Shown here piece by piece: positions 15,251 through 17,998 of a DNA stretch of 64,000 bases. Positions within the stretch are counted from its first letter, which is position 1. Each line of letters opens with the position of its first letter. This DNA comes from a virus (lineage: Duplodnaviria; Caudoviricetes), in IMG/VR virus record IMGVR_UViG_3300021387_000199, positions 32,001 through 96,000 of that record; one strand, 5' to 3'. Both the position numbers and the translations under genes were made by a program. The notes below the pieces were generated by a model, which was given only the letters and a program-made list of their open reading frames with translations, searched no databases and was not told where the DNA came from.

Positions 15251-17998
15251 TTACGTGCCGCCCCTTACAAAATTCTTCAGGAACCTCTCTTTATCCATTC
15301 GGTATAGGCAATTCAATATTTGTCGTGAATACTTAGCATTTTTGCGCTGAAAAGGTTTATTTACTTTGTCGTCGCTGCCCTCAAGGTCCAAAGCTGTCTA
15401 TATAAGGCGATTGATTACCTTCAAGTTCTTGAACCTCAAAGACTTAAGTCTCTACACCGCGATTTCCATGTCTTTACCCATCTTAAACATGGCAGACATC
15501 GGATCATTCCAGTCTTCCACCAAATCTCTCTTTACGGCAGCAGAATAATCTTTGATTATGTCTAATACTTTATTCGTAGTTCGCCAATCGGCTCGGCCCT
15601 TAACCTTAACGAAAAAGTCTTCGGTCGGGATCCAGTCATTTGTTCTGACCCCCTGAATCTTGTTCAGGTAATCTTGAAGCCAGTTCATAGGGCAGACAAA
15701 AGATTCGTCGATCCGGTCGCGGAGTTTGTTTTTGTTTTCTTTGACGATCTAATAGGGGATTTCTTCACCATTCCTGGCTCTGGGAACGTCACGGGTGTAC
15801 TTCATGAATAAGGGGAAGTCTTTTTTCTGGGTATGGATTTTGCCGGAATTGTCTCTGTATTGAACCTATTTGATCATGCAAGGTTCGCGGAGAATACGTT
15901 TTATTTCTTCAAGGCCATCTATTTCATAAACTCTCTTGCAGCCATCTATGATTATCTGAGCAAGCACACTCAATATTATGAAATTCTAATAATAATTTTG
16001 CATATCCTACTTATTAGGATTTTCTTTTGACAATTCTGTCCAATAATAGCTCATACAAAGCTGAGCGGCGTTTGAACTCCAGCCAATTCCCAGCTGGGAA
16101 TGAGCCATCATATTGTCCATACGAGCATAATCAGCCATGGTATTGTTGTATGACAAACCTGATTCTTCGAGGCTATTTACTATAGTGGGATATTCCTCAT
16201 AGCAAATCTTGGCGGCTTTCACCAAAGTGGGATGATTGGACACAAAATTGAAGTCCGAATCAAAATCTTCGCCATTCATCCTAGACTGAATGTCTGTTTC
16301 TATGCAGTTTACCGCCATAATATTGGAACTAAATTCGAAATACTCTTCCATTAGTTCATGTTTTATATTAAGGAAATACCCTAAGTTGTTGGGAGAGTTA
16401 TGAGGGTTGCGTATCCCTAAAAGATACTCACCATCCTAAAATCTTGGCGTATAACACTCGATTACACCTGATCTCGGCCTCAATGTTGGATCTTTTTGCC
16501 AATCTTCGCCAACAGAATAGAGTAGTAGAGCATAAGGATTTCCGCAAACCGTCAGATTATCCCCCTCAACAAAGATTTTCCCATTCCTGAGCTTGAAAAC
16601 GTAGGCATTGATTATCTTCTTTTTCTCGTTCAGAAACCAGCGGGATTTTGCGAAATCGTGGTTATGAGCGTACAAATCAGCCATCATTTCGTAATGATTG
16701 ACCTAATTCGCGTTTTCCCGGAGGAACTCTTCGAATTTATCCGGATCCTTCTTCAGGCTTTCAACGTATTCGATGCTGGTCCGGGCGACTTCGCCGATCT
16801 CTTCCTTACTGAGCGGAAGAGTGTTGACCATCTGGTAAGACATCTGCTGATACCGCCCGATCTTGGACGGGTGATCAGTCTTTACGATCCCCCACTTGCA
16901 ACCGTCATCGCGGATTTTCTGACACCAGTAGTCGTACGCGGCCTTCTAAGTTCCCCCCATTTGAGGGACAAACTTCCGCCATTTCACGGCATTGTCTGTC
17001 GTGATCATCTGGATGTCCTTCAGCCGATGCGAATACCCGAACATATCCTGAACTTCGTAAGTTTCGTAATTATTACCAGTCTTTTCACACCAATCCCGGA
17101 AGAATTTCTGTAGCCGGGTCCTGAACGCGCAAGCCTTGAACATGTGATTCCTGAGCAGACACATTCCGTTGACCCAGTTCGGCAGCGAGAGAGTGTCTAT
17201 AAGCGCCATTCCGTCCCACAATGTATTCTTTACCTACGTCTCTTCATGAGAAACGACGCATTTTTTCGCTATTTCCCCGTTTGACTTGGCGTAATCTTCG
17301 GCTTTTACGACCTCCGCGACAGTCCTGAAGAAAGAATCCTGATCCTTCAGAATCAGTATGTTTTCTACCGGAATATGCAGAGTTCCGACGATTGTAGACG
17401 TGGTCAGCGGGGCATAAGCGCTCATTTCAACGACTTTCGCCCCTTTATCCGGCAATTTTATGCCCATCGTGAGCCAATTGTGGGCTGTTTCGTACAATTC
17501 TTCCCGAATAAACATTACTTCGCCGACTTTAGCCTTCGCCGGCGTCCTGAAGAGCATAACATAGTGGATTTTGTCGGCGTATTCTATGTTTCCGTCTTTG
17601 TTCCGGTACTCATACACTATATCTACGCCTTCTTCGTAGAACTTCGTCCGAATCTGTTCCCGGCTCAGGGGAACGTATTTATCTTTGTTCGCGTCGATTT
17701 TATCCAGTATCCTTCGGATATTTTCGCGCTCTTCATCGGATTTTGCCCGGTCAAACAGCTTTTCAACACGTTTTCGCTATTCTTTATAGGATTTTGAGCC
17801 AAAATCAAACGAGAGACAAACGATATCTCTAGTAGATTCCTCTTTGTAAACCTAAAGCCCGTGATCTCTCATGTAGTAGTAAAAGAGAGAGTTGTTTAAC
17901 ATCGCGTCTGTGTACGCGTAAAACTAGCGGGTTTCCAGATTACACTAATACAACATGCCCGCGGAAAAGTTTTTTATACGAATTCCAAATTCGCTGAT
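15251..17998 (-). CDS. YonO-like single-subunit RNA polymerase, about 915 aa, 14 in-frame TAG; probable ATC start
   Basis: Catalytic MNGEDFDSD loop, RNPHNSPNN and WDGMALI motifs; one continuous frame broken only by TAG; ends TAA at 15251. Confidence 0.85.

Follow-up and report, generated by a model that had tools for sequence, protein, structure and literature searches.

Amber codons in a phage YonO-type RNA polymerase gene: a probable lineage-specific consequence of recoding

When a phage RNA polymerase gene is full of amber codons, has it been made a gate on the late programme, or does it share the fate of the gene block in which it lies? The question is raised by a 64,000-nucleotide stretch (the window), bases 32001-96000 of one 134,294-bp virus contig (IMG/VR record IMGVR_UViG_3300021387_000199, ~83% complete), in which a minus-strand gene encodes a YonO-type RNA polymerase with 14 in-frame TAG codons. 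An initial annotation had proposed that the polymerase and packaging genes are the most amber-loaded, and that the polymerase thereby acts as an amber master gate of the late programme. We arrive, with moderate confidence, at another explanation: the amber-gated polymerase would be a lineage-specific consequence of recoding, with its load set by the recoded domain, Glu count and inverse copy number. This grading applies to the explanation as a whole, which also holds that the phage is SPbeta-like and comes from ruminant-gut Clostridia (Lachnospiraceae by its relatives), that the polymerase and packaging genes stand in the upper tier of TAG load and are not outliers, and that the 14 polymerase TAGs would be ordinary Glu or acidic positions. 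Coordinates below are those of the window unless marked as genome.

15251-18055, minus strand: longest open reading frame (ORF) of the polymerase gene, 934 codons, 14 in-frame TAGs, no TAA or TGA
15251..17959, minus strand: YonO-type single-chain RNA polymerase coding sequence, 902 amino acids (aa) from Met33, by AlphaFold2 (AF2)/Foldseek, hhalign and PHROG 8308
15398..17947, minus strand: span of the 14 in-frame TAG codons, from the codon listing
17947, 17926, 17854, 17779, 17236, 16948, 16705, 16438, 16009, 15988, 15868, 15751, 15454 and 15400, minus strand: first bases of the polymerase TAGs
16253..16267, minus strand: catalytic metal-binding motif DFDSD, residues 597-601 of the 934-codon frame

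Homologues start at Met33 (position 17959), giving a 902-aa protein with TAGs at codons 5 and 12, so that both the 14 TAGs and the pair within the first 25 codons that the initial annotation had counted are present. The AF2 model (predicted local distance difference test 73.4, predicted TM-score 0.68) matched RDR2 and QDE-1 in Foldseek at E 1e-8 to 1e-7 over 850-930 columns, nearly its full length, as well as the phage polymerases P32 gp64, P74 gp62 and, weakly (E 0.02), phi14:2 gp66. D597, D599, S600 and D601 are invariant in a family alignment of 26 sequences. The protein matches PHROG 8308 (E 4e-88). In hhalign, the family profile matched SPbeta YonO with Prob 85% and E 5.9e-6 over 383 columns at 25%, the DFDSD motif being aligned with YonO FDNDGD. 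The similarity to YonO lies at the profile level only. A tblastn run against a phage collection returned no SPbeta match for the polymerase, and a PDB sequence search and Pfam gave nothing for it. On one strand, the genes run in the order polymerase, HU, weak YonK-like gene, terminase and portal, and an early block diverges from them on the opposite strand. SPbeta has the same arrangement, with YonN, YonF and YonE as the counterparts of HU, terminase and portal. Because of the fold, the motif, the profile match and this gene order, we conclude that the gene at 15251-17959 encodes a single-chain two-barrel RNA polymerase of the YonO type, as first annotated. In SPbeta, YonO is synthesised following induction and serves to transcribe late genes (Forrest et al. 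2017, PMC5467207); by this homology, the polymerase described here would transcribe the phage late genes. SPbeta differs in using the standard code, whereas the gene here has its 14 in-frame TAGs.

Calling genes with TAG as a sense codon resolved the genome into two strand blocks. The minus-strand block contains portal, large terminase (TerL), head protease, endolysin, holin, an HK97-fold capsid gene and a 6811-codon ORF with a tape-measure region.

genome 127036-134294 plus 1-55101, minus strand: late block
genome 55387-126996, plus strand: plus block

We measured amber load as TAG share, defined as TAG over Glu-type codons (TAG + GAA + GAG). The 47 late genes hold 182 TAGs beside 1416 GAA and GAG codons (mean TAG share 0.114), whereas at most 4 plausible in-frame TAGs occur in the 19,364 codons of the 111 plus-block genes (Fisher p=5e-54), which bears out the earlier remark that plus-strand genes are almost TAG-free. 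Other apparent plus-block TAGs sit in N-terminal ORF extensions, and only 3 of the 111 genes terminate with TAG. Two relatives of the phage served for comparison. G001, a whole 174,862-bp record whose polymerase is 81% identical, is the only recoded relative in IMG/VR on the TAG = Glu side. L005 (IMG/VR UViG 3300021387_001019; loci 10067-13118 and 19634-22634) belongs to the same phage family, with the same gene set; its record is about half complete and its polymerase 49% identical.

7376..9517, minus strand: TerL, 10 TAGs; PHROG 2, E 1e-26; BLASTP to SPbeta YonF, E 5e-9
9426..10721, minus strand: 431-aa ORF upstream of the terminase (pre-TerL ORF), 6 TAGs; orthologues have 12 TAGs in G001 and 12 in L005
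genome, outside the window, late block: Holliday-junction resolvase, 6/12 Glu-type codons are TAG (p=0.001)
genome 2248-22683, minus strand, outside the window: 6811-codon tape-measure-like ORF (L001/L002), 83 TAGs
genome 128209-129963: 584-aa adhesin-like ORF (L004:13915-15669), 15 TAGs; putative ice-binding-like domain PF20597, E 4e-9

The TAG share of the polymerase is 14/82 = 0.171, compared with 0.111 in the rest of the late block (p=0.11), and that of TerL is 10/50 = 0.20 (p=0.07 against the rest of the block). Among the 31 late genes of at least 140 codons, they rank 6th and 4th. Within the window alone each gives p ~0.01, having been picked post hoc from 23 genes, and a window-wide heterogeneity test gave p=0.057. 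The label 'most amber-loaded' is thus true of raw counts inside the window and does not hold genome-wide, where ORFs with 83 and 15 TAGs exceed both genes. The polymerase is not more TAG-loaded than other low-copy late genes.

Could selection nonetheless have concentrated ambers in the late polymerase and packaging genes, making the code switch a master lytic gate? The polymerase has two of its 14 TAGs in the first 12 codons, and that of G001 has 12 TAGs, 6 and 8 being lineage-specific in the two phages. When the polymerase, TerL and pre-TerL ORF are pooled, their share is enriched (0.182 versus 0.106, p=0.006, post hoc). The packaging genes carry a heavy load in three lineages, including one with an independent recoding, and YonO drives the late operon in SPbeta (PMC5467207). 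However, neither the polymerase nor TerL is individually significant genome-wide, and other genes show higher TAG shares and counts. The lysis genes stressed by Borges et al. (bioRxiv 10.1101/2021.08.26.457843) show no enrichment in this phage (endolysin 3/31, holin 0/11, against the mean of 0.114), and the L005 polymerase is free of TAG. As 29 of the 47 late genes carry TAGs of their own, a lock on the polymerase is also redundant. The master gate proposed at the outset is therefore not borne out, and we regard such selection as unlikely.

Several observations nevertheless weigh against our own reading that the load of the polymerase follows from recoding of the block. Four of the 14 polymerase TAGs lie within the first 100 codons (p=0.09) and TAGs overall lean slightly to 5' ends (p=0.04), both of which would suit a gate. 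The polymerase stands at ~1.5-1.9 times background in both Glu-lineage phages (p=0.05-0.07 each, giant ORF excluded), and a modest but real enrichment may exist. This phage and G001 also share ancestry, so that they are not independent replicates.

Copy number appears to be another determinant of load. The genes for presumed abundant products are as follows.

5815..7368, minus strand: portal protein, 2 TAGs; PHROG 2739, E 6e-92
1022..3260, minus strand: major capsid gene, split by a group I intron; PHROG 4088 and 314; Rfam RF00028, 58.8 bits
3289..3912, minus strand: 207-aa head-module gene (putative decoration protein), 0 TAGs
10954..11232, minus strand: HU-type DNA-binding protein, counterpart of SPbeta YonN, 0 TAGs; Pfam PF00216, E 1.5e-21

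The earlier counts of 10 TAGs in terminase, 1 in capsid and none in HU were reproduced, as was that of none in the 207-aa gene, whose naming as decoration protein is putative. Capsid, portal, 207-aa gene and HU together are depleted of TAG, with 3/74 here (p=0.04) and 4/76 in G001 (p=0.02), in agreement with the suggestion that high-copy proteins are TAG-poor. The more the use of non-Glu codons resembles that of the capsid gene, the lower the TAG share (rho -0.29, p=0.10; rho -0.39, p=0.006). These data bear on whether gene length, Glu content and base composition alone account for TAG numbers, expression and function playing no part, which we judge quite improbable. TAG counts do track gene length (rho 0.68), and TAG share is weakly tied to GC content at third codon positions and to the GAA/GAG ratio. 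Moreover, of the nine possible single-base changes of TAG just one is synonymous, so that TAGs would be shared even in the absence of selection; for the same reason we rejected the retention of all 10 TerL TAGs in G001 as evidence of selection. Yet load is heterogeneous per Glu codon beyond chance (Monte Carlo p=0.003) and gene-wise TAG share correlates between this phage and G001 (rho 0.56, p=5e-4), high-copy proteins are depleted in both phages, and the borders of the recoded domain are sharp.

The upstream border of this domain lies close to the polymerase gene.

18293..19546, minus strand: PhoH-like gene, 2 TAGs, the first TAG-bearing gene downstream of the divergent region; PHROG 2765, E 1e-75
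19549..23101, minus strand: TAG-free promoter-proximal module, with genes at 19549-19839, 21797-22024, 22134-22376 and 22373-23101 around a tRNA-like array
20428-21607: array of tRNA-like genes whose anticodon arms are abnormal (2-nt 'anticodons' in ARAGORN; a 50-nt insert in one gene)

The four promoter-proximal genes have no TAG in 39 Glu codons (P(0)=0.008), and their G001 counterparts none in 70. The border is therefore sharp, with the polymerase just inside it. The tRNA-like row marks the boundary of TAG-free and TAG-bearing genes; at the matching spot, G001 has ordinary tRNA-Lys and tRNA-Leu genes.

What would TAG encode? At sites where one of this phage and G001 has TAG and the other does not, the commonest exchange is with GAA or GAG (35/77 and 26/66), CAA or CAG accounting for only 7 and 5. 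At the 14 polymerase TAG columns, 91 standard-code homologues have E in 33% and D in 26% (background 7% each) and Q in 4%, and two of the 14 sites are nearly invariant E. Both the exchange with Glu codons and the acidic residues at homologous columns indicate that TAG is read as Glu in this phage. The following tRNA genes bear on its decoding.

genome 118774-118846, plus strand, outside the window: tRNA(CUA) gene
10743-10815: tRNA-Gln(UUG) of this phage, 76 kb from tRNA(CUA)
G001 141019-141184, late strand: tRNA(CUA) region (L094), adjoining tRNA-Gln(UUG), downstream of the polymerase gene

The two tRNA(CUA) genes share a GCCCC acceptor stem and a Glu-like D arm. They are located differently in these two close relatives, on the plus strand here and on the late strand between HU and packaging genes in G001. 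As the latter lies downstream of the polymerase gene, the order of events is even less obvious in G001. The base after TAG is T in 12% of cases, compared with 19% after GAA or GAG (p=0.02) and 45% at true stops, which fits a mild avoidance of strong termination contexts. The G001 counterpart of the 6811-codon ORF, at 6353 codons, has 183 TAGs, or 29% of its Glu-type codons. Read-through of ~98-99% per codon would be needed for ORFs with 83 and 183 TAGs, and the open state must therefore be nearly complete.

On indirect evidence, the host itself seems unlikely to read TAG as sense: relatives of the phage occur in Lachnospiraceae genomes and the early genes avoid in-frame TAG. Polymerase homologues of 50-57% identity are found in large scaffolds of cultured Eisenbergiella and in a complete 7.3-Mb genome; Eisenbergiella tayi DSM 26961 is among the Lachnospiraceae genomes with a homologue. 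Prophage-borne relatives together with two tyrosine recombinases suggest a temperate lifestyle.

46065-47120, plus strand: tyrosine recombinase (Phage_integrase)
genome 125159-126391, plus strand: second tyrosine recombinase (Phage_integrase)

Sheep, cattle and goat gut runs contain the phage, and a metagenome contig scan found a single 2.2-kb fragment.

L005 provides a contrast within the family. Its packaging genes are likewise heavily amber-loaded, with 12 TAGs in the pre-terminase ORF and 9 in the terminase, whereas its polymerase, PhoH and exonuclease genes have none; among Gln-type codons, TAG makes up 0 of 23 in the polymerase and 21 of 45 in the packaging genes (p=2e-5). L005 TAGs align with Gln in this phage at 7 of 22 sites and never with Glu, whereas TAGs of this phage align with Glu in L005 at 15 of 27, and the two have no TAG site in common. 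These alignments indicate a separate TAG = Gln recoding in L005, so that Glu- and Gln-reading codes would coexist in one phage family. Because L005 was recoded separately and has a TAG-free polymerase, the heavy load of packaging genes appears convergent and that of the polymerase lineage-specific; gating of the polymerase would thus not belong to the switch in general. The L005 record, about half complete, yielded no tRNA(CUA). The L005 polymerase gene is interrupted at residue 565 by ~256 nt of structured-looking sequence, possibly a small intron.

Overall, this suggests a model in which three factors would set the TAG load of a gene: first, membership in the recoded domain, which would start just after the promoter-proximal TAG-free module and include the polymerase; second, the number of Glu codons; and third, an inverse relation to copy number, TAG behaving as a poor codon that would be lost from capsid, portal and HU but kept in enzymes and the giant tail protein. 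As the first TAG is at codon 5, no complete polymerase can be made unless TAG is decoded, and translation would halt at that codon if the phage tRNA(CUA) were absent. TAGs seem to accumulate only where the product is not needed before the tRNA acts, from which we infer that the polymerase acts after the switch, with tRNA(CUA) acting ahead of polymerase synthesis. This would amount to a coherent feed-forward lock: the tRNA would permit synthesis of the polymerase, the polymerase would make late mRNAs, and the same tRNA would permit their translation. This is conditional on the polymerase transcribing the late operon as in SPbeta. Amber gating of the polymerase is thus probably such a lock, arising as a side effect when the recoded domain spread over the polymerase gene, rather than a master gate that selection singled out or intensified. 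An amber-dependent late polymerase is nonetheless plausible as a testable, lineage-specific lock. A stronger version can be put forward only tentatively: in the TAG = Glu lineage, the recoded domain may have spread upstream over the polymerase and inverted the TAG = Gln order (polymerase first, code change second), yielding a natural feed-forward AND gate that would shut leaky late transcription and translation in lysogens, with packaging genes as convergently chosen locked targets.

A phage-specific two-part motif, AGGGCTT-N15-TGAGAAATA (given also as AGGGCTT-N15-TRAGAAATA), precedes genes and tRNA(CUA).

21767..21797, minus strand: one of several copies of the two-part motif
genome 81927, 83588, 111410, 117957 and 118697, plus strand: further copies
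genome 131487, 53797 and 24764, minus strand: copies on this strand, 53797 being the one at 21767..21797

G001 retains it at two sites, of which the one before an 80-aa gene is orthologous to the copy at genome 131487. No convincing counterpart was seen in the SPbeta yonN-yonK gap. A scan of 9000-25500 for sigma-70-type promoters found 31 against 26.6 expected from shuffles, that is, not above shuffles. If the motif at tRNA(CUA) were read by the phage polymerase, the circuit would be a positive-feedback loop. An injected enzyme would remove any circular dependence, should this motif be a promoter that the polymerase reads, which brings up a further possibility: that the polymerase is made late, delivered with the virion and active at the start of the next infection, as in crAss-like phage phi14:2 or N4, its TAG load marking it only as a virion protein. 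The gene lies on the late strand near the head genes with a load like that of virion proteins, and the fold family includes, by the weak match above, the phi14:2 virion polymerase. We consider this very improbable, however. The gene order matches that of SPbeta, where YonO is made post-induction to transcribe late genes (PMC5467207), and induction of a prophage, as expected from the Lachnospiraceae relatives and the two recombinases, offers no injected enzyme. In addition, no YonO-like polymerase domain was found in either half of the giant tail ORF (Prob below 1%).

A late-gene code switch has been proposed in print before: Borges et al. (bioRxiv 10.1101/2021.08.26.457843) put forward the idea that recoding holds back late and lysis genes and may lock lysogeny, and also tested per-family codon preference. 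As in their phages and in phAss-1 (PMC10607447), TAG is confined here to the structural and late module, replication genes are in standard code and the phage has a tRNA(CUA); the presumed host may use the standard code as well. Unlike in those phages, TAG stands for Glu and not Gln (code 15), and the phage record yielded no gene for a release factor or an aminoacyl-tRNA synthetase; a search of the 134-kb, ~83% complete record for the Sigma70_r2, Sigma70_r4, RF-1, resolvase and GluRS families found no gene. The phages of Borges et al. differ further in that lysis genes are not preferentially recoded here and the phage's own RNA polymerase is inside the recoded set. An amber-bearing polymerase gene with a separate suppressor tRNA recalls the amber-gated T7 RNA polymerase AND gate (Anderson, Voigt and Arkin 2007, PMC1964800) and a suppressor-tRNA feed-forward leak dampener (PMC7969014), in which output likewise requires both components. 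Those circuits are engineered and use two amber codons, whereas here there are 14, the downstream genes are amber-laden too and the wiring is deduced from sequence. If the lock works in this way, it would be a natural counterpart of engineered amber-gated polymerase circuits, and a code switch could sit above transcription in the phage timing cascade, not just above translation. Sister lineages with the polymerase inside or outside the recoded set would form a natural experiment on the spread of recoding through a genome. Before genes are labelled 'preferentially recoded', per-gene amber counts need to be scaled against the codons of the amino acid replaced and against the genome as a whole.

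TAG load can shift fast in single genes, as seen for the 584-aa ORF with its 15 TAGs here and only 1 in the G001 orthologue. In the 6811-codon ORF, residues ~1700-3000 match tape-measure families and the rest is without match. Towards the end of the plus block, two plus-strand genes have in-frame TAGs that seem genuine and are shared with G001 (96% identity across the TAG), so that some of this block may be expressed after the switch. The G001 terminase protein is 98.5% identical to that of this phage, compared with 80-88% for its neighbours, and its gene is split by an insert that is probably a mobile intron or intein.

genome 112262-112933 and 109229-109765, plus strand, outside the window: the two plus-block genes with apparently real TAGs
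12499..12717, minus strand: 72-aa gene with a weak YonK match, 0 TAGs; PF09642, E 0.009 (below cut-off); SPbeta synteny
G001 136176-139748: terminase (L093), split by a ~1.4-kb insert with a 375-aa ORF, 3 TAGs
2799-3260 and 1022-1618, minus strand: capsid exon ORFs, with 0 TAGs and, in exon 2, 1 TAG
2487-2824, minus strand: group I intron in the capsid gene, Rfam RF00028
1722-2429, minus strand: GIY-YIG-type homing-endonuclease ORF in the capsid intron, 2 TAGs

The HK97 fold of the capsid protein was shown on the intron-less G001 orthologue. Four runs with an RNA library label, all in the form of contigs, were compared with 1-20000 of the window. Contigs of two runs, one of them RNA, join ~1700 to ~2840, as expected for spliced or intron-less capsid forms.

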